The notes under the pieces are model-generated. The model ran no database searches. It had not been told where the DNA came from and saw only the letters and a program-made list of their open reading frames with translations. From Planctomycetota bacterium (lineage in GTDB: Bacteria > Planctomycetota > JAJSAM01 > JAJVHW01), in assembly GCA_965248445.1 (NCBI GenBank), contig CBDFJG010000001.1, forward strand, positions 544,001 through 608,000: a stretch of DNA of 64,000 bases, written 5' to 3'. Positions 52,804 through 62,890 of the stretch are shown here, one piece after another. Position 1 is the stretch's first letter, and each line of letters starts with the position of its first letter. The translations under genes and the position numbers were made by a program.

Positions 52804-53256
52804 ATGAGGATGCTCGACCGTCTGCTCGGCCTGACGCCAGCTCTTGGGATACTTCTCGGCCCGGTTCTCGCCCTCGGGGGCTGCGCCCTGTTCGGCGCCG
52901 GCCACACCGTCCACGCCACCCTGGCGCAGCAGGGCCGGGTGATGCGGCTGTCACCCGGCGACGACCTCGCGGTCACGCTCCCGAACGTCAGCGGTCCGTC
53001 TGCCAGTGCCTCAAGGGGCTTCGACTGGGCCCCCGCCGCCTACGACGAGGACGTCCTCTCTTACGACGACGATCCCGAGCACATCCGCTCCCTCAGGAAC
53101 GGCAAGCCCGACCCCTGGGCGCCGGCCTTCGAGCGCCACACGTTCCGGGCCCGCGGCACAGGCAAGGGCGAGATCCTGATGGGTGCGCCGGGTGCCGAGC
53201 CACTGGAGGGCGGCCTCTCCGGTCGCGCGTTCCGCCTCGGCGTGATCGTCAGGTAG
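52804..53256 (+). CDS. Lipoprotein, possibly chagasin/I42-like
   Basis: Lipobox LGGC; GDDLAVTLP...GFDW...TFRARGTG. Confidence 0.5.
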   Translation: MRMLDRLLGLTPALGILLGPVLALGGCALFGAGHTVHATLAQQGRVMRLSPGDDLAVTLPNVSGPSASASRGFDWAPAAYDEDVLSYDDDPEHIRSLRNGKPDPWAPAFERHTFRARGTGKGEILMGAPGAEPLEGGLSGRAFRLGVIVR

Positions 53257-53415: not shown

Positions 53416-54657
53416 ATGACGACGGCAGGCGACTCCGGCGACCCTCTGATGGTCGCGTTCTCGGGCGGACTCGACACCACTTGGCTGGTGGCGCGATCAC
53501 GTGAGATCGAGGAGCGACGTCCGGTCATCACCGTGACGGTGGACACCGGGGGGTTCTCGCCCGAGGAGCTTCGTCAGATCGAGGACCGCTCCCGCCAGGC
53601 CGGAGCGGCCCGGCACGTCCTGATCGACGGGCGGCAGTCGGTGTTCGACCGGTTCGTGCGGTTCCTGATCGCCGGAAACTGCCTGCGCGGCGGGTCCTAC
53701 CCGCTGTGCGTGGCCGCCGAGCGGATCGTGCAGGCCGAGGAACTGGCGTGCGCCGCGCGGACCTCCCGCGTGCGCACCGTCGTCCACGGCAGCACCGGGG
53801 CCGGCAACGACCAGATCCGGTTCGACGTCGCGCTGGCGGTGCTGCTGCCGGAGGCCGAGGTCCGCGCCCCCGTGCGGGAACTCAGTCCCTCGCGCGAAGA
53901 GGAGTACGCGTTCCTCGAGGAGCGCGGACTGCCCGTGGACCGCGCCGCCAGGACGTACTCCGTCAACCGCGGGCTCTGGGGCACGACGATCGGCGGCGGC
54001 GACCTGCACCACCCGGAGAAGCCGATCCCGGCGGACTGCTGGGCCGACACGGCGGATCCGGATGCGTGCGACGCCGTGGGCGAGACCGTGGCGGTGACGT
54101 TCCGGCAGGGCGTGCCCGTCGCGCTCGACGACGCCGAGATGTCCGGGCCGGACCTCGTCGCGGCGCTGAACGAACGCGCGGCGGCACAAGGCGTCGGCCG
54201 CGGCATTCACACCGGCGACACCATCCTCGGTATCAAGGGACGCCTCGCGTTCGAGGCTCCTGCGGCGGCTGTGCTGGTCTTCGCGCACCGCGAACTCGAG
54301 AAGCTGGTGCTCACCAAGCGCCAGATGGAGTGGAAGGACCGCCTCGGCGCGTACTACGCCGCGCTGGTCCACGAGGCGCTCTACTTCGACCCGGTGGCGC
54401 GGGACATCGAGGCGTTTCTCGCGTCATCACAGACCACGGTCACGGGCACCGTGCGCGTGCGCTGCGTGCGCGGCCGCACCGAGGTCGCCGGGATCGAGAC
54501 CGACGCGTCGCTCATGGGGCGGCTCGGTTCGGTGTACGGCGAGGGTGCCGGCGCGTGGTCCGGCGACGAGGCGCGCGCGTTCGCGAAGCTGTACGGCTTG
54601 CCGTCGGTGCTCGCGGCGCGGCGGGACGCGGACCTGGCCGACGGCGGTGCGTCATGA
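53416..54657 (+). CDS. argG: Argininosuccinate synthase
   Basis: AFSGGLDT, HGSTGAGNDQIRF, YSVNRGLWG, GIKGR. Confidence 0.95.
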   Translation: MTTAGDSGDPLMVAFSGGLDTTWLVARSREIEERRPVITVTVDTGGFSPEELRQIEDRSRQAGAARHVLIDGRQSVFDRFVRFLIAGNCLRGGSYPLCVAAERIVQAEELACAARTSRVRTVVHGSTGAGNDQIRFDVALAVLLPEAEVRAPVRELSPSREEEYAFLEERGLPVDRAARTYSVNRGLWGTTIGGGDLHHPEKPIPADCWADTADPDACDAVGETVAVTFRQGVPVALDDAEMSGPDLVAALNERAAAQGVGRGIHTGDTILGIKGRLAFEAPAAAVLVFAHRELEKLVLTKRQMEWKDRLGAYYAALVHEALYFDPVARDIEAFLASSQTTVTGTVRVRCVRGRTEVAGIETDASLMGRLGSVYGEGAGAWSGDEARAFAKLYGLPSVLAARRDADLADGGAS

Positions 54658-55667
54658 AGACGCACCTCGACAAGATCGCTTCCTGCACCATCAACGCGAA
54701 GCTCGACCGCGAGGTCGAGGTCAGCGACCAGCTCGCGCCGGAACTCGGGCGGGTGGTCGTCGTGCGCGCATTGCGCGAGAAGACCGTCTACGACAAGGTC
54801 GAGCTGGTCAGCGGCCGCATGGCGAAGATCAGCAAGGACGACGTGATCGCGGGTGTGCTCGGCCGGCGTCGCGCGTTGCGCGGCTTCGTCGGTGACATCC
54901 CGGACGAGATCCGCGTCGGCGACCGGGTGCACATCCTGAACATCGGCGGCGTCGTCGGCGTCGTCGTATCGGGCAACCTCGACCTCGGACAGCCGCTGCT
55001 CTGCGAGGTCGTGGGCGCGGTCATGCACAACGGCGAACCGGCCAGCATCTCGAAGGGCATCCCGCCTCCGCCGGACACGCTCGGTGACGTGCCACTGATC
55101 CTCGTCGAAGGCACGTGCATGAACTCGGGCAAGACTTACGCGGCTGCAACGCTCATCCAGAAGCTGACGCAGCGGGGCTACCGGCTGAACGGCGCGAAGT
55201 TGACGGGCGTCGCGTGCATGCGCGACCAGCTCAACATGGAGGACCACGGAGCCGTGCGCACGAAGAGCTTCCTCGACGTGGGGCTGCCCTCGACCGTCGG
55301 CGTCGACGACGTCGCGGGCGTGGCGCGAACCCTCCTCGCGGACCTCGCGAGCGACAAGCCCGACGCGATCATCGCCGAACTCGGCGACGGCATCATCGGC
55401 TACTACGGCTGCGACAAGATCCTGGCCGACCCGGAGATCCGCAGGGCGACCAAGGCGCACGTCATGTGCGCCAACGACCTCGTCGGCGCGTGGGGCGCGG
55501 TCGAGGTCATGCGCAAGTGGGGTCTCGAGATCGACGTGCTGACCGGACCGGCGACGGACAACGACGTGGGCGAGGGCTACGCGAAGCAGGAACTGCGGCT
55601 GCCGGCAGCGAACGCACGGCTCAACCCGCACAAGCTCGCCGACCTGGTCGAAGGCCTGGTGTTCTGA
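54654..55667 (+). CDS. DUF1611/DgcN-like P-loop protein; candidate N-acylglutamate synthase
   Basis: ATGA overlap with argG and TGATG with argC; GTCMNSGKT, KLTG, ELGDG. Confidence 0.7.
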   Translation: MKTHLDKIASCTINAKLDREVEVSDQLAPELGRVVVVRALREKTVYDKVELVSGRMAKISKDDVIAGVLGRRRALRGFVGDIPDEIRVGDRVHILNIGGVVGVVVSGNLDLGQPLLCEVVGAVMHNGEPASISKGIPPPPDTLGDVPLILVEGTCMNSGKTYAAATLIQKLTQRGYRLNGAKLTGVACMRDQLNMEDHGAVRTKSFLDVGLPSTVGVDDVAGVARTLLADLASDKPDAIIAELGDGIIGYYGCDKILADPEIRRATKAHVMCANDLVGAWGAVEVMRKWGLEIDVLTGPATDNDVGEGYAKQELRLPAANARLNPHKLADLVEGLVF

Positions 55668-56734
55668 TGATCGCGACGGCCGGACCGTCGACGCGATTCA
55701 AGATCGCCATCGCCGGTGCCAGCGGCTACGGCGGCGCGGAGATGCTCCGCTGGATCGCGGTGCACCCCAATCTCGAGGCGTGCGCGGTGACGTCGCGCCG
55801 CAACCAGGGGCGCGCCGTGCCGGAGGTGCACCCGAATCTGGCCGGCTTCCACGACGACCTGAACTTCGTCGGTAACGTCGACGACATGCTCGCGACGGAG
55901 CCGCAGGCAGTCGTGCTCGCCGTGCCGCACAAGACCGCTGCCGACATGGCGCTGAAGGTGCAGACGGCACTCCCGGACGTCCCGATCGTGGATCTGTCCG
56001 GCGACCATCGCCTGGACGACCCGGACTCGTATCGCGCGCACTACGGCGTGACGCACCCCCACCCCGGCGCACTGACGTCCGGCGAGTGGGTGTACGGGTT
56101 GAGCGAGGCAAACCGCGATCGCATCTGCAACGCGCGTCTCATCGCCAACCCCGGCTGCTACGCGACCGGCGCGGCACTCGCCGCGCTGCCGCTCTCGGAA
56201 GAAGGGCTGATCGCCGGACCGGTGCGGCACGTGGCGATCACCGGCTCGTCCGGCGGGGGCGTCGAAGCAAGACGCGGAACTCACCATCCCGAACGGGTCG
56301 AGAACGTGCGCGCATACAAGGTGCTGGCGCATCAGCACGTGCCCGAAATCGTGCGGTGCCTGCGCGAACACGGGATGGGCGACCACGCGTGGCACATGGT
56401 CCCGCAGTCCGGTCCGTTCGCCCGCGGCATCCTGACGACGCTGTTCGTCGAGCTCACGCGAGAGATGACGGGCGACGAGTTGCGCGGCATCTACGACGGC
56501 GCGTTCGAGAACGAGCCTTTCGTGCGCATGCGCGACGGCTCGCCGCAGATCGCCCACGTGCACGGCACGAACTTCTGCGACATCGCCGTGCACGTGGATG
56601 GCAAACAGGCAGTCGTGCTGTCGGCGATCGACAACCTCGGCAAGGGCATGGCCGGACAGGCCGTGCAGAACCTGAATCTCCTCCTCGGCCTGAACGAGGC
56701 CGCTGGCATCGCGGTGCCCGGGAGCCGGCCGTGA
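55667..56734 (+). CDS. argC: N-acylglutamyl-phosphate reductase
   Basis: GASGYGG, DLSGDHRL, ANPGCY, DNLGKGMAGQAVQN. Confidence 0.95.
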   Translation: MIATAGPSTRFKIAIAGASGYGGAEMLRWIAVHPNLEACAVTSRRNQGRAVPEVHPNLAGFHDDLNFVGNVDDMLATEPQAVVLAVPHKTAADMALKVQTALPDVPIVDLSGDHRLDDPDSYRAHYGVTHPHPGALTSGEWVYGLSEANRDRICNARLIANPGCYATGAALAALPLSEEGLIAGPVRHVAITGSSGGGVEARRGTHHPERVENVRAYKVLAHQHVPEIVRCLREHGMGDHAWHMVPQSGPFARGILTTLFVELTREMTGDELRGIYDGAFENEPFVRMRDGSPQIAHVHGTNFCDIAVHVDGKQAVVLSAIDNLGKGMAGQAVQNLNLLLGLNEAAGIAVPGSRP

Positions 56735-57897
56735 CCGAGGATATCCGCGACGCCGAGGCGCGGTACGGCATCCCGACGTACTCGCAGCTCCCGCTCACAC
56801 TGGTGCGCGGCGAGGGCTGCTACGTCTGGGACAGCGACGGCAACCGACACCTCGATCTCTACGGCGGGCACGCGGTTGCGCTGACCGGGCATTGCCACCC
56901 GCGCGTCGTGGCGGCGATCCGAGAGCAGGCAGGCAAGCTGCTCTTCTACAGCAACGCCGTGTCGAGCGACGTGCGTGCACGCGCACTCGAAGACCTGGCA
57001 GCGACGGCGCCCGAAGACGGCTTCCGCGTGTTCCTCTGTAACTCGGGGACAGAGGCGAACGAAGCCGCCATCAAGCTGGCGCGAAAGACGACCGGACGCC
57101 GTGAGGTCCTCTCGATGGAGGGCGGTTTCCACGGCCGCACGATGGGATCGCTGTCGGCGACACACCTCGGCCACTACCTCGCGGACTACGCCCCCGGAGT
57201 GCCGGGACACCGGTTCATCCCGTTCGGCGACCTCGACGCCGCAAGCGCCGCGATCAGCAGCGAGACCGCTTCGGTCATGCTCGAGCCGATCCAGAGCATG
57301 GCGGGGATGCAGACCGCCACGGACGAGTACCTGCGCGCGCTCCGCGCGCGGTGCGACGAACACGGTGCGCTGCTGCACTTCGACGAGGTGCAGACGGGGC
57401 CGGCGCGGACCGGAACCTGGTGGTACGGCGATCACGGCGGGGTCGTGCCGGATCTCATCAGCACGGCCAAGGGCCTGGCGAGCGGCGTACCCGCGGGTGC
57501 GGTGCTCGCGCGGGCGAACGTCGCCGAGGCGGTTCGGCACGGCGACCAGGGCACGACGTTCGGCGGCGGGATGCTCGCGTGCGCGGCGATCTCGGCAACG
57601 CTCGCCGTCGTGCGCGACGAGGGCCTGCTCGAGAACGCGACCCGGCGCGGCGCCGAGATCACAGAAGGCGTCTCGGCGCTCGCGGGCGTCACGGACGTGC
57701 GCGGACGCGGCATGCTGTTAGGGATCGCGCTCGATCGGCCGGCCAAGCCCGTCGTCGCGGCGCTACGCGATCGAAGGATCCTGACCGGCACGACGGTCGG
57801 CGATGCGCACGTCCTGCGCATCCTGTCCCCCATCACACTCGGCGACGCTCAGGTGGCGACGTTCATCACACAGCTGGGCGAGGTGCTCGATGCGTAA
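56731..57897 (+). CDS. argD: N-acylornithine aminotransferase
   Basis: NSGTEANE, FHGRT, DEVQTG, AKGL. Confidence 0.92.
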   Translation: MTEDIRDAEARYGIPTYSQLPLTLVRGEGCYVWDSDGNRHLDLYGGHAVALTGHCHPRVVAAIREQAGKLLFYSNAVSSDVRARALEDLAATAPEDGFRVFLCNSGTEANEAAIKLARKTTGRREVLSMEGGFHGRTMGSLSATHLGHYLADYAPGVPGHRFIPFGDLDAASAAISSETASVMLEPIQSMAGMQTATDEYLRALRARCDEHGALLHFDEVQTGPARTGTWWYGDHGGVVPDLISTAKGLASGVPAGAVLARANVAEAVRHGDQGTTFGGGMLACAAISATLAVVRDEGLLENATRRGAEITEGVSALAGVTDVRGRGMLLGIALDRPAKPVVAALRDRRILTGTTVGDAHVLRILSPITLGDAQVATFITQLGEVLDA

Positions 57898-58891
57898 CCT
57901 GCTCTCGCTGGCGGACCTGCCGGGCAGGGAACTGGAAACCCTCCTCGCAGAGGCCGCGCGCATCGCGCGTGACGGCCCGGATCCCACGGCCCTGCGCGGC
58001 AAGCGCGTCGCTCTGCTCTTCCTCAACCCATCGCTGCGCACGCGCACGTCGATGGAACTCGCCGCCAAGACGCAGGGGGCGCACTCCGTCACGCTCGTGC
58101 CCGGCGCCGACGCTTGGAAGGTGGAGCTCGAACGCGGCGCGGTCATGAATGGAGAGGCTGCGGAGCACATGGTGGACGCGATCCGCGTGCTCTCGCGCAT
58201 GTGCGACGGGATCGGCGTCCGCACGTTCGCTGGATTGCGCGACGCCGACGAGGACCGGCAGGAGCGCGTGCTCTCTCTCATCGCGGAGGAGAGCACCGTT
58301 CCCGTCGTGAACATGGAGTCGGCTTTGGATCACCCGCTCCAGGCGCTGGCCGACCTGCAGACGCTGCAGGAGGAACTGGGTGATCTGCGCGGTGCGCCGG
58401 TCGCGCTGACGTGGGCGCCTCATCCGAAGGCGCTGCCGATGGCGGCGGCCGCCGCTTTCCTGCGCGGTGCCGCGCGCGTGGGCGCGGACGTCCGCGTCGC
58501 CGCCCCCGAGGGGTTCGCGCTGCCGGACGAACTCGTGGAGGAGGCGCGCACGCTGCTTCCCGGCACCGGCAGCGTCTCCACCACGAACGACCAGCGAGCG
58601 GCCGTGCAAGGCGTGCGCGCCGTGTACGCCAAGGCCTGGGCGGCTCCGGCTCTCTACGCGGATGCGGCCGCCGGAAGCGCTGGACGCGATCGAAACGCCG
58701 CCTGGACCGTCACGGAGGGTCTGATGGCGGAGGGCGCCGACGCGGTGTTCCTCCACTGCCTCCCCGTGCGCCGCAACGTGGTCGTCACGGACGAGGTGCT
58801 GGACGGGCCGCGCAGCCGCGTGTACCGCGAAGCGGAGCACCGGTATCACACGGCTTGCGCCGTGCTGAGCCGCGTGCTGGGAGGCGCGTGA
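57890..58891 (+). CDS. argF': N-acylornithine carbamoyltransferase (ArgF' type)
   Basis: FLNPSLRTR, TWAPHPKALP proline-rich loop, HCLPVRRN. Confidence 0.9.
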   Translation: MRNLLSLADLPGRELETLLAEAARIARDGPDPTALRGKRVALLFLNPSLRTRTSMELAAKTQGAHSVTLVPGADAWKVELERGAVMNGEAAEHMVDAIRVLSRMCDGIGVRTFAGLRDADEDRQERVLSLIAEESTVPVVNMESALDHPLQALADLQTLQEELGDLRGAPVALTWAPHPKALPMAAAAAFLRGAARVGADVRVAAPEGFALPDELVEEARTLLPGTGSVSTTNDQRAAVQGVRAVYAKAWAAPALYADAAAGSAGRDRNAAWTVTEGLMAEGADAVFLHCLPVRRNVVVTDEVLDGPRSRVYREAEHRYHTACAVLSRVLGGA

Positions 58892-59802
58892 TGGACGACG
58901 TGAAGATCCTGATGCAGGCGCTGCCCTACATCCGCGCGCACCGCGGGAAGACGTTCGTCGTCAAGTTCGGCGGCGCGGTCGTGGAGAACACGGAGGCCTT
59001 GGCCACTCTCGCAAAGGACGTGTCCCTGCTCACGAGCGTCGGCATCGACATCTGCATCGTCCACGGTGGCGGGCCGCAGGCGACGGCGATGTCCGAGAAG
59101 CTCGGCCTCGCGCCGAAGTTCGTCGAGGGTCGCCGCATCACGGACGCCGACACGCTCGAGATCGCGAAGATGGTCTTCGCGGGCAAGATCAACCTCGAGA
59201 TCCTCGGCGCCCTGCGCGCGCAGGGCTTGAGTGCGGTCGGGCTCTCCGGGGTCTCCGGCGACCTCGTGCAGGCCGTCCGTCGCCAACCCACGGAGTATCG
59301 CGACGACGATACGGGCGAGAAGCGTGTGGTCGACATGGGCCACGTGGGCGACATCGAAAGTGTCGACACGTACCTGCTCCGAGAGCTGATGGACACGGGC
59401 CACGTACCGGTCGTGAGTTCGCTGGCCGCGGACGGTGACGGCAACTTCCTGAACATCAACGCCGACACGGTCGCGACGGCCATGGCGGTCGATCTCGCGG
59501 CCGACAAGTTCCTGCTGATGACCAACGTCGACGGCATCCTCCGCGACAAGGACGACCCGTCGTCCCTCGTCGCGACCGTGACCGCCGCCGAGGCGGAGAA
59601 GCTGATCGAGGACGGTGTGATCGCCAGGGGCATGATCCCGAAGGTCAACAACGCCCTCGACGCGCTGCGCGGCGGCGTGGATCGCGTGCACATCCTGAAC
59701 GGCGAGCGTCCGCACACGCTCCTGACCGAGCTGCTCACGAAGCGCGGCAACGGCACCTTGCTCACGCTGGAAGAACAGCCGCCGGGGTACCTCATCGGAT
59801 GA
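58891..59802 (+). CDS. argB: N-acylglutamate kinase
   Basis: ALPYI, KFGG, VHGGG, NINAD, GMIPK; no fused GNAT domain. Confidence 0.95.
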   Translation: MDDVKILMQALPYIRAHRGKTFVVKFGGAVVENTEALATLAKDVSLLTSVGIDICIVHGGGPQATAMSEKLGLAPKFVEGRRITDADTLEIAKMVFAGKINLEILGALRAQGLSAVGLSGVSGDLVQAVRRQPTEYRDDDTGEKRVVDMGHVGDIESVDTYLLRELMDTGHVPVVSSLAADGDGNFLNINADTVATAMAVDLAADKFLLMTNVDGILRDKDDPSSLVATVTAAEAEKLIEDGVIARGMIPKVNNALDALRGGVDRVHILNGERPHTLLTELLTKRGNGTLLTLEEQPPGYLIG

Positions 59803-60887
59803 GCACGCCGGTGTTCACCGCGGACGACCCGGTCGACCTGACCGTGCGCCTGGTCGAGACGCCGTCGGTCTCCGGCGGTGAGTCGGCGGTCGTCGGCCTG
59901 ATCGCCGAGGGGCTGCGCGCCGCAGGACTGCGGCCGATCGTGACCGGCCGCAACGTGCATGCCGTCGTAGAGGGCAAGCGCCCTGGCCGCCACACGCTCC
60001 TGCTGCAGGGGCACATCGACACGGTGCCCGCTGGACAGGATTGGACCCGCGATCCGTGGCGCGCGTCGCGAGAGGACGGGCGGATCTACGGCCTCGGGTC
60101 CAACGACACGAAGGGCGGCGTCGCCGCGATGATCTGCGCTTTCGCGGACCTCGCGAAGACGCGGGACTTCGGCGGGACGCTCGTGTTCGCTGCCACATGC
60201 GATGAGGAGACCGGCGGCGAGGGCCTCGAGACACTGCGCCCCCACCTGCCGCCGCTGACCGGCGCGGTGATCGCTGAGCCGACGACGCTGCGAGTCTGCA
60301 CGGCTCAGCGCGGGTTGATGCGAATCGTCGTCGCGTGCCACGGCCGTTCCGCGCACGCGTCGCGACCGTGGCAAGGCAGCAACGCGATCGAGTTGGCGCT
60401 GGCCGACATCGCGGCTCTCCGCGCGATCGAGGCGCCGGACGTGCACCCGCTGCTCGGACGCACGACCTGCACGCCCACCATGATCGAAGGCGGCGTCGGG
60501 TCCAACGTCGTCCCGCCGCTCTGCCGCTACACACTCGACGTGCGCCCCACGCCCAACTACCCGAACGCGTGGTGGGAGGAGCGCATCCGGGCCACGGTCC
60601 AGGGCGAGATCGAGGTGTTCCGGGGTCGCATGGTGCCGGTGGAGACCGAGCCCGGAGACCGGCTCGTGCAGGCGGCACTCCTGGCGGCCGCCACCGGCGA
60701 CGCGGCACCGTTCGGCGGCGTCAGCGATCTGTTCCACGTGCGCGACGTCGCCGGCGTCGTGCTCGGTCCAGGGCGCTCGGAGCAGAGCCACTCCCCCGAC
60801 GAGTGGGTGGAGGAAGAACAGGTGCGTGCGGCGGTCGCCGTGTACCGCGACCTTGTGCTGAGTTACCTGACGGGAGAGGCCGCATGA
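59799..60887 (+). CDS. argE: M20 deacylase (acylornithine/acylcitrulline)
   Basis: GHIDTV, GLGSNDTKG, DEE, EPT, HSPDE; operon context. Confidence 0.85.
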   Translation: MSTPVFTADDPVDLTVRLVETPSVSGGESAVVGLIAEGLRAAGLRPIVTGRNVHAVVEGKRPGRHTLLLQGHIDTVPAGQDWTRDPWRASREDGRIYGLGSNDTKGGVAAMICAFADLAKTRDFGGTLVFAATCDEETGGEGLETLRPHLPPLTGAVIAEPTTLRVCTAQRGLMRIVVACHGRSAHASRPWQGSNAIELALADIAALRAIEAPDVHPLLGRTTCTPTMIEGGVGSNVVPPLCRYTLDVRPTPNYPNAWWEERIRATVQGEIEVFRGRMVPVETEPGDRLVQAALLAAATGDAAPFGGVSDLFHVRDVAGVVLGPGRSEQSHSPDEWVEEEQVRAAVAVYRDLVLSYLTGEAA

Positions 60888-62302
60888 CCAAACGCAAGAA
60901 CCCCGCGACATCGCGCACATCCAAGCGGGGCCTGTGGGGCGCACGGTTCGACGGCGGACCGTCGGCCGCGATGCGCGCGATCGGGGACTCGCTGCACGTC
61001 GATCAGCGTCTCGTGGACCAGGACCTCCGCGGGTCGATCGCTCACGCGCGCATGCTCGGAGACCAGGGCATCCTACGGAAGGCCGACGCACGGAAGATCG
61101 TGAGCGAGCTCGGCAAGATGCGACGCGAGATCGCGCGCGGGGAACTCGTCGTGGAGGGCGCCGACGAGGACGTCCACTCCTGGATCGAACGCGTCCTGAC
61201 GGAGCGGATCGGCGACGACGGCGCACGGCTGCACACGGCCCGAAGCCGCAACGATCAGGTTGCCACGGCGTTCCGCCTCTTCCTGCGGGACGGGACCGCG
61301 GAGGTCAACGACGCTCTGCGCGCACTGCAGTCGTCTCTGGTCGCGCGGGCGGCCGAGATGATCGGCGTCATCGTGCCGGCGTACACGCACCTCCAGCGGG
61401 GCCAACCTGTGCTTCTGTCGCACCAGTTCCTGGCCTACGTGGAGATGCTCGAGCGCGACCGCGGACGGTTCCTCGACCAGGCGCGCCGCATGAACGAGTG
61501 CCCGCTCGGCGCGGGCGCGGCAACCGGCGTGCCGTATCCCATCGACCGCGCCGCGACGGCGAAGGAACTCCTGTTCGATCGGCCGACAGCCAACTCCATG
61601 GACAGCGTGGCGGATCGCGACTTCGCTGCGGAGTGGCTGGCCGCAGCGGCAATCCTCGCCGTGCATCTCTCGCGGCTGGCCGAGGACATCTGCCTATGGG
61701 CGTCGTCCGAGTTCGGGCTTCTCTCGCTCGGCGACGCGGTCTCGACGGGCTCGTCGATCATGCCTCAGAAGCGCAACCCCGACGGCGCGGAGCTTGTGCG
61801 CGGGAAGGCCGGTCGCGTGATCGGCTCGCTGGTGTCCCTTCTGACGACCCTCAAGGCGCTGCCGCTGACGTACAACCGCGACCTGCAGGAGGACAAGGAG
61901 GTCGTGTTCGACGCGCTCGACACGTCCCTCGTGTGCCTGCGCATGCTGGACGACACGCTCGCAGAGAGCCGCTTCGTGCCGGAGGCGGCCGCGCGGCTGC
62001 TCGAGGGCGGACACCTGCTGGCGACGGAACTGGCGGACTTCCTCGTCGGGAAGGGCGTCCCGTTCCGACTCGCGCACGAGGCGGTCGGCGAGGTTGTGAA
62101 GGAGTGCGACGACCGAGGCGTCGACCTCTCCGAGCTGTCGGAGGAGGACCTGGTCGCGCTGCACCCGCGCTTCGCGGACTGCGCAGAGACACTCGACTTC
62201 GCCAGCGCCGTGGATCGGCGCGACCACCTCGGGGGCACGGCGACGAAGCGCGTACGCGCTGCCATCCGCAAGTGGGTGCGCCGCCTCGCGCCGCGGAGGT
62301 AG
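60884..62302 (+). CDS. argH: Argininosuccinate lyase
   Basis: LWGARF, RSRNDQ, GSSIMPQKRNPD, YNRDLQEDK. Confidence 0.97.
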   Translation: MTKRKNPATSRTSKRGLWGARFDGGPSAAMRAIGDSLHVDQRLVDQDLRGSIAHARMLGDQGILRKADARKIVSELGKMRREIARGELVVEGADEDVHSWIERVLTERIGDDGARLHTARSRNDQVATAFRLFLRDGTAEVNDALRALQSSLVARAAEMIGVIVPAYTHLQRGQPVLLSHQFLAYVEMLERDRGRFLDQARRMNECPLGAGAATGVPYPIDRAATAKELLFDRPTANSMDSVADRDFAAEWLAAAAILAVHLSRLAEDICLWASSEFGLLSLGDAVSTGSSIMPQKRNPDGAELVRGKAGRVIGSLVSLLTTLKALPLTYNRDLQEDKEVVFDALDTSLVCLRMLDDTLAESRFVPEAAARLLEGGHLLATELADFLVGKGVPFRLAHEAVGEVVKECDDRGVDLSELSEEDLVALHPRFADCAETLDFASAVDRRDHLGGTATKRVRAAIRKWVRRLAPRR

Positions 62303-62311
62303 TCGATCCGG

Positions 62312-62890
62312 ATGGAACTCGACGACGCCGTCGTGCGCAACGCTTTGCGCCCCGCCACCGGAGACTGGCGATCGTCGAACGACCTGAAGGACGCCGCCGT
62401 ACTTCTGCCGTTGCTGCGTCGGGACGGCGCCGATCACCTGCTCTTCACGCTGCGCCGCGCGGACCTGCCCGACCACCCAGGCCAGGTTGCGTTCCCCGGC
62501 GGGTCACGCGACGCGGGCGAGGATGTCGTGACGTGCGCCCTGCGCGAGACCGAGGAGGAGGTCGGGCTCCCGGCCGACCTGCTGACGCCGCTCGGCCGCC
62601 TGCCGGAGCGCGTCTCGATCGCGGGCTTTCTCGTCGCGCCGGTCGTTGCGCGGCTCACACGTGAGCATCCGCCCGTGCCGGATCTGCGCGAGGTCGAGGA
62701 CGTCTTCGACGTCCCACTCTCCGCACTCCTCGACAAGAGCCTCTGGCGTTTCGAGTCGCTCTCGACACCTCGGGGCAACTTCAACCACATCCCGTACTTC
62801 GACGGCGGACGCCACACTGTCTGGGGACTGACCGCCGTGATCGCCCGCGACTTCCTGCGCAGCGTGCTGGAGTTCGATCCGGGCCCGTGA
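62312..62890 (+). CDS. Nudix hydrolase, CoA pyrophosphatase type
   Basis: AAVL, HPGQVAFPGG, ALRETEEEVG, VWGLTA. Confidence 0.9.
   Translation: MELDDAVVRNALRPATGDWRSSNDLKDAAVLLPLLRRDGADHLLFTLRRADLPDHPGQVAFPGGSRDAGEDVVTCALRETEEEVGLPADLLTPLGRLPERVSIAGFLVAPVVARLTREHPPVPDLREVEDVFDVPLSALLDKSLWRFESLSTPRGNFNHIPYFDGGRHTVWGLTAVIARDFLRSVLEFDPGP

Follow-up and report, generated by a model that had tools for sequence, protein, structure and literature searches.

What acylates glutamate in an arginine operon that has neither argA nor argJ? The question is raised by a 64,000-nucleotide stretch of Planctomycetota DNA (the window; assembly GCA_965248445.1, contig CBDFJG010000001.1, positions 544,001 to 608,000), where the operon reads argG-ORF-argC-argD-argF'-argB-argE-argH and one open reading frame (ORF), at 54654..55667, was without an assigned function. 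An earlier note on this DNA proposed its 337-residue product as a new N-acylglutamate synthase that replaces ArgA and resembles DUF1611 and DgcN. Our analysis indicates that the protein is likely to be the step-1 enzyme of arginine synthesis. Its gene context and its mutual exclusion with ArgJ and ArgA give good support to the view that it replaces ArgA without being an orthologue. The claim to novelty does not hold. Price et al. (GapMind, bioRxiv 2024; PLoS Genet 2026; PMC13759103) earlier predicted the ArgA role for a Steroidobacter homologue, ACG33_RS14135, on the grounds of the gene's place in its operon, its mutual exclusion with the ArgA of Pseudomonas, a Foldseek resemblance to DgcN and the residue at ArgF' position 92. 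The step-1 assignment is thus already in print, and the 337-residue protein is a further member of that predicted family.

The known step-1 enzymes were sought in the whole host genome, an assembly 92.1% complete, which bounds every genome-wide negative given here. As the note had stated for the operon, none was found. There was no ArgJ, and the only match to the long ArgA model was ArgB itself. Of PRK07757 and PRK07922, which we take to be short ArgA models, one gave 2 matches at 28 bits (cut-off 154) and the other none. In a PF04768 search of the genome none of the controls matched. A Bacteroidota-like GNAT, found beside argF' in some related genomes, was not found in the host genome with that query. 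ArgB and ArgH carry no GNAT fusion, matching the fusion models only in their non-GNAT parts: ArgB aligned to positions 2-280 only of the 429-position ArgA model and ArgH to 3-459 only of the 624-position PRK12308 model. The 337-residue protein itself matched no GNAT or ArgJ profile in Pfam or NCBIfam at E <= 0.1, and we found no sequence or fold relationship between it and the enzymes that hold the same predicted place in the pathway, namely ArgJ and the GNAT synthases (long ArgA TIGR01890, short ArgA and BT3761).

One sample of 251 genomes from the window's phylum was used for every distribution count. The family is carried by 79 of these genomes (strong match, E <= 1.6e-97). ArgJ occurs in 110 and the short-GNAT model PRK07757 matches in 87, with no carrier in either group, where independence would give overlaps of 34.6 and 27.4; long ArgA occurs in five genomes, again with no carrier. 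The anticorrelation with argA and argJ that the note had proposed as a check is therefore present. Both states occur inside single families, with 3 carriers and 4 ArgJ genomes in one (f7) and 2 of each in another (f20). ArgF' is present in 77 of the 79 carriers, and 60 genomes, 59 of them carriers, have an enzyme closely related to the M20 protein of the window. The deacylating linear route to which these two enzymes point would need fresh acylation of glutamate.

The family is large. Of 8000 candidates at least 3927 scored as relatives, 131 clusters (50% identity) match the protein at E <= 1e-30, and a scan of named genomes confirmed at least 581 relatives, of which the best 80 had their neighbourhoods examined. 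The nearest named relatives among these 80 are Planctomycetota, at 79-80% identity, and the remainder are mostly Acidobacteriota. An arg gene lies in the fetched flank of 79 of the 80 loci, the exception being L021. Many flanks are cut by contig ends; as fetched, they contain argG in 74, argC in 73, argD in 66, argF' in 59, argB in 56, argH in 48 and an argE-like gene in 7. ESM Atlas clusters of relatives consist of hypothetical proteins, with minor shares labelled DUF1611, MobB or CbiA; the Steroidobacter protein A0A127FCT3 was not among the members listed for the 10 clusters looked up.

The small number of argE-like genes in these 80 flanks, together with the perfect exclusion with ArgJ, would suit an ArgJ-like transacylase that returns the succinyl group from N-succinylcitrulline to glutamate and so replaces both ArgA and ArgE. 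S. denitrificans is said to have no ArgE (Price et al.). We consider such an enzyme very improbable: the window's operon has its own M20 deacylase, a relative of which is found in 59 of the 79 carriers and hardly outside them (59 of 60), and a transacylase does not need the full Mg-NTP site described below.

The genes of the operon are all on one strand, and, as the note had described, neighbouring genes overlap throughout; the overlaps, at 7 of 7 junctions, are of 1-8 nucleotides each. The ORF of interest is joined to argG at its start by an ATGA overlap and to argC at its stop by a TGATG overlap. The neighbours were identified by Pfam and NCBIfam models, with argC, argF', argB and argH exceeding the curated cut-offs.

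53416..54657, + strand: argG, argininosuccinate synthase, 413 residues; PF00764 and PF20979; TIGR00032 at 266.4 bits, 2 bits short of the cut-off of 268.2.
54654..55667, + strand: the ORF of interest, predicted N-succinyl-L-glutamate synthase, 337 residues, two domains.
54654..55058, + strand: its N-terminal beta domain, about residues 1-135, from structure models and conservation.
55074..55664, + strand: its C-terminal SIMIBI-type P-loop domain, about residues 141-337, from fold and residue matches.
55667..56734, + strand: argC; TIGR01850 at 335.5 bits, cut-off 233.6.
56731..57897, + strand: argD, N-acylornithine aminotransferase; ArgD models match best, TIGR00707 at 365.8 bits, below the cut-off of 410.
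57890..58891, + strand: argF', N-acylornithine carbamoyltransferase; PRK04523 at 366 bits, cut-off 288; Ala at X. campestris position 92.
58891..59802, + strand: argB, N-acylglutamate kinase, 303 residues; TIGR00761 at 236.6 bits, cut-off 151.3; no GNAT fusion.
59799..60887, + strand: M20 ArgE/DapE-like deacylase; PF01546 and PF07687; below every equivalog cut-off.
60884..62302, + strand: argH, argininosuccinate lyase, its start read at the junction; TIGR00838 at 546.6 bits, over the cut-off; no GNAT fusion.

A scan for promoters and terminators gave results at chance level, with 0 promoter-like sequences and 2 terminator-like ones against 2.2 expected.

The window's ArgF' points to succinyl as the most likely acyl group. 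Aligned with solved chains, both wild type and position-92 variants, it shows Ala in the place of Glu92 of X. campestris, and having A, P, S or V at this position is reported to switch the specificity to N-succinylornithine (Price et al.). Among the 59 of the 80 carrier loci that include argF', position 92 is Thr in 49, Ala in 7, Ser in 3 and Glu in none; in argF' loci from non-carrier genomes, Glu92 is found in 5 of 17 (17 of 22 fetched loci). These data narrow the earlier N-acyl assignment to succinyl. A succinylated arginine pathway is established for Bacteroidetes, where it is served by BT3761 (PMC7311316). The M20 protein at 59799..60887 is probably an N-succinylcitrulline desuccinylase.

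It is far less probable that the protein makes N-acetylglutamate or ligates glutamate to a carrier protein of the LysW type. The Thr found in most of the ArgF' proteins lies outside the residues tested, and ArgD and ArgB do have weaker matches to LysW-pathway models. The window's own ArgF', however, has Ala, one of the residues with which a succinyl specificity is reported, and a carrier gene would find no space between genes that overlap at every junction. The LysW/LysX route was rejected because the best match to a LysX/ArgX-type ligase model in the genome reached 37 bits against a cut-off of 275.6.

The reaction itself has to be read from the protein. The full-length structure model (predicted local distance difference test score, pLDDT, 97.1) has a nearly all-beta domain of about residues 1-135 followed by a SIMIBI-type P-loop domain of about residues 141-337. 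The GTCMNSGKT motif that the note had recognised as P-loop-like is residues 153-161. The predicted nucleotide site consists of the Walker A pair K160/T161, a second lysine K182, D191 and the Walker B residue E242. None of the five varies among the proteins from arg loci (79 of 79), and in a set of 105 diverse family members they are almost invariant. L028 was left out of the residue counts as its family gene is frameshifted; in that locus (L028:10001-14183) the family gene, argC and argF' are all frameshifted in one assembly, probably through sequencing errors. In the N-terminal domain Y46, E50, R55, R72 and N96 are invariant in the same 79 proteins, and this domain is a candidate for binding the amino acid or the acid. 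Modelled alone (pLDDT 92.8), it had no Foldseek match at E <= 0.001, and among 48,161 chains none reached Z >= 5, the best being a Tudor/LexA-like match at 3.6, with DUF1611 chains not listed. These results establish neither that the fold is new nor that it differs from that of DUF1611.

Dethiobiotin synthetase (BioD) is the nearest profile match. The profile-profile comparison gave a probability of 94.3 and E 9.5e-8 for BioD, against 22 and 9.6e-4 for DUF1611. The five residues align with invariant positions of a BioD alignment of 16 members (15 of 20 loci and E. coli), in which Thr at +1 and Lys at +22 after the P-loop Lys are found in 16 of 16. Neither pattern is found in any of 16 DUF1611 proteins (20 loci yielded 18 ORFs, of which 16 were used and two near-duplicates dropped), and none of these has Thr or Ser directly after the Lys. 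In DgcN (7XRJ), a D-glutamate N-acetyltransferase, the Thr of Walker A is replaced by Met and the second Lys by Ala. A search of PDB sequences with the single sequence gave 1 match, at E 0.81, and one with the family profile gave P-loop proteins only (FtsY, BioD, MobB), DgcN not being among the 40 matches. In BioD, K37 stabilises the acyl-phosphate, and two other SIMIBI C-N ligases, formyl-tetrahydrofolate synthetase and CTP synthase, also act via phosphorylated intermediates. The E. coli BioD counterparts of the five residues are K15, T16, K37, D54 and E115, and the site residues of M. tuberculosis BioD are K15, T16, K37, D49 and E108 (PMC9932657). BioD moves the gamma-phosphate of its nucleotide onto a carboxy group of the substrate, and its Walker B residue is a Glu (10.1101/2022.06.23.497301).

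The reaction and its ATP route are what we infer from the arg neighbourhood, the phylogenetic pattern, the fold and the conserved residues shown here, and the succinyl group is what we infer from ArgF'. The 337-residue protein would make N-succinyl-L-glutamate as step 1 of a linear succinylated pathway; ArgB, ArgC, ArgD and ArgF' would turn this into N-succinylcitrulline; after desuccinylation by the M20 enzyme, ArgG and ArgH would complete arginine. Because the protein keeps the five nucleotide-site residues of BioD, two of which DgcN lacks, we predict an ATP-dependent, coenzyme A (CoA)-independent succinate:L-glutamate ligase that combines a BioD-type P-loop domain with a beta domain of its own, and give this prediction an even chance of being right; granted the step-1 role, we lean towards the ATP route. 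Mg-ATP held at K160, T161, D191 and E242 would phosphorylate the carboxylate of succinate, K182 would stabilise the acyl-phosphate, and the alpha-amine of L-glutamate would attack it. The net reaction would be succinate + ATP + L-Glu -> N-succinyl-L-Glu + ADP + Pi, with no CoA.

A number of points weigh against this picture as a whole. Every N-acetylglutamate synthase that we know of uses acyl-CoA. The published table lists the role of the family without experimental evidence (Price et al., PMC13759103), and the Thr92 of 49 of the 59 ArgF' proteins is only "chemically similar" to the residues tested. All six paralogs examined (of 9) outside arg operons keep the same five residues, so these mark nucleotide chemistry and not the step-1 reaction. 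The counts overstate independence, since most of the 80 loci belong to Acidobacteriota that are related to one another and the 251 genomes are likewise kin. Furthermore, a Bacteroidota-like GNAT occurs in 7 of the 251 genomes, and in the 5 of them that are carriers it lies next to argF', which counts against strict replacement of ArgA. In those five the argF' and the GNAT share a locus of their own, and beside argC-argD-argB the family gene remains intact. The GNAT that comes after argF' in one genome (G186), which presumably resembles BT3761, has its nearest Atlas clusters in Planctomycetota and Bacteroidota.

Structure gives arguments both ways. Foldseek placed BioD at ranks 1-4 (top E 8.1e-7), with DUF1611 2obn 15th and DgcN 36th (E 6.1e-5 and 1.3e-4). 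In a wider structural search, however, the top match was DUF1611 2g0t (Z 17.9, root-mean-square deviation 2.7, 180 aligned residues), BioD and DUF1611 2obn had the same Z of 16.7, and DgcN 7xrj, at 15.9, came within 1 Z of them. Fold scores by themselves thus do not favour BioD over DUF1611, and the residues separate the BioD-like from the DgcN-like option better than the fold does. The alternative suggested by these matches is a DgcN-like acyl-CoA transferase, converting succinyl-CoA and L-glutamate to N-succinyl-L-glutamate and CoA, with the P-loop holding the CoA phosphates or serving allosteric control. Price et al. imply such an enzyme, all the gene-context evidence applies to it equally, and 65 of 105 family members match PF07755 weakly (E <= 0.1). 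We regard it as less likely and rank the ATP ligase ahead of it: two residues that the family keeps throughout, the Thr of Walker A and the Lys at +22, are missing from DgcN and DUF1611, their profile match is far weaker than that of BioD, and the structural alignments (deviation 2.7-3.0, 180-185 residues) cover the C-terminal domain only.

What the earlier note said of DUF1611 thus stands for the C-terminal fold (Z 15.9-17.9) and fails for membership. The PF07755 match of the protein reached 15 bits against a cut-off of 25 (E 0.016) over only 32 residues of the P-loop, the best E value among 105 members being 1.3e-5. The motifs that stay constant across the 16 aligned DUF1611 proteins (G-x-D-x3-GK, TGQ-x-G and EGQG) are absent. 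ArgR, BioD and canonical DUF1611 were not found in the whole genome, where DUF1611 had no match at 1e-10. The protein is a member of neither DUF1611 nor BioD. To DUF1611 and DgcN it is linked only remotely, through the C-terminal domain alone, and BioD stands at least as near, so the chemistry of DgcN is not simply transferable.

The absence of an ArgR, the presence of HypB and FtsY among the fold matches and the GNAT beside argF' in five carriers are all compatible with a different role, that of an accessory NTPase of the operon (a regulator, a partner of ArgB or an assembly factor), with an unrecognised GNAT elsewhere acylating glutamate. Many SIMIBI proteins are regulatory dimerising NTPases. 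We think this role unlikely, as zero overlap with three separate families of step-1 enzymes suits a replacement better than a helper, and the argF'-linked GNAT was not found by that query in 74 of the 79 carriers, the host genome included.

Comparison with the known systems places the protein more exactly. With the ACG33_RS14135 family it shares the operon setting, the ArgF' argument and the remote similarity to DgcN; it differs in coming from another phylum and in having an ArgE-like gene in the operon. It is 42-44% identical to homologues of the Steroidobacteraceae clade over about 340 columns, with 0.32-0.33 of their self score, which lies above the 25-30% bit-score threshold of that family as judged by proxy (P0139 and two named Steroidobacteraceae proteins). 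It also has the arginine cluster, the Ala92 in ArgF' and no canonical ArgA in its genome. The Steroidobacter A0A127FCT3 gene on a deposited plasmid has the same motifs, compared by eye only.

With DgcN (7XRJ) and DUF1611 (PF07755; 2OBN, 2G0T) the protein shares a P-loop fold, the G-x5-GK spacing, the Walker B Glu, a similar total length and glutamate acylation as the proposed chemistry. It has GKT, KLTG and ELGDG where they have GKM, ATGQTG and EGQG, and its setting is biosynthetic where theirs is catabolic. BioD (TIGR00347; PDB 1DAE, 1A82, 3OF5) shares the five nucleotide-site residues, but is a single domain of about 225 residues in a biotin context; here there are two domains, the extra one a beta domain of 135 residues, in an arg operon with no biotin genes nearby and with a different substrate, and TIGR00347 scores 13.3 bits against a cut-off of 83.3.

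The locus tag and accession of the Steroidobacter homologue were found in our literature search only in the GapMind paper, and the search gave no test result for that gene and no other paper for succinylglutamate synthetase or acetylglutamate ligase. It also gave no P-loop ATP-dependent N-acetylglutamate synthase, with most subscription journals outside its scope. Price et al. compared the family with Pseudomonas ArgA; the available passages of their paper contain no ArgJ or short ArgA test and no ATP mechanism. The ATP-ligase mechanism, for which the chances stand level, is the part not found in the papers searched and would be new relative to the printed assignment.

If confirmed, the assignment would close the gap at step 1 of arginine synthesis in many environmental bacteria; besides the relatives confirmed here, the published count spans 109 genera (Price et al.). 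If the ATP route is right, 79 of the 251 genomes sampled from this phylum, about a third, and also Acidobacteriota and Steroidobacteraceae, would use a new chemistry for this step, which could reveal a new route to N-acyl amino acids. A succinyl-specific enzyme may fail to rescue an E. coli argA mutant, and an ATP-dependent one would escape an acyl-CoA assay. What our analysis contributes is thus a reason to change the assay, to acid plus ATP, by which the published prediction becomes decidable; deposited plasmids exist for the Steroidobacter gene and for E. coli argA.

The sample also held a weaker, full-length paralog (1e-67 to 1e-76) in 9 of the 251 genomes, 5 of them with ArgJ, located outside arg operons. 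In two genomes (L116:6118-9065 and L117:5447-8266) it comes after a flavin-reductase-like gene and an M20 hydrolase, which suggests another acylating and deacylating pair; under the ATP route, such M20-paired paralogs would be further N-acyl amino acid ligases.

Three genomes (G141, G197 and G166) have an argH-argG-argC-argD-argF' operon with Ala92 (L176:98-7930, L180:5474-14214 and L184:1271-10011), led by argB in L180 and L184, where the contig shows it. None of the three matched the queries for the family, ArgJ, short or long ArgA, the argF'-linked GNAT or the M20 enzyme. They represent a second unexplained gap at step 1, and a 601-residue ORF that overlaps the end of argF' and has no Pfam or NCBIfam match is a candidate for the gene. 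In three other loci (L179:5572-9904, L183:5504-8683 and L190:6333-10517) a P-loop protein of 441-447 residues, with a weak CobW match only, lies directly before argF' and a GNAT, and an M20 gene is next in two of the three. This protein resembles cyclic 2,3-diphosphoglycerate synthetase-like proteins.

Two further genes border the operon in the window. Upstream of argG, an ORF of 150 residues at 52804-53256 has a hydrophobic N-terminus, a lipobox-like Cys and no Pfam match. Downstream, a NUDIX hydrolase gene at 62312-62890 begins 9 nucleotides past argH and is linked in 2 of the best 80 related loci; its motif presumably resembles that of CoA pyrophosphatases.

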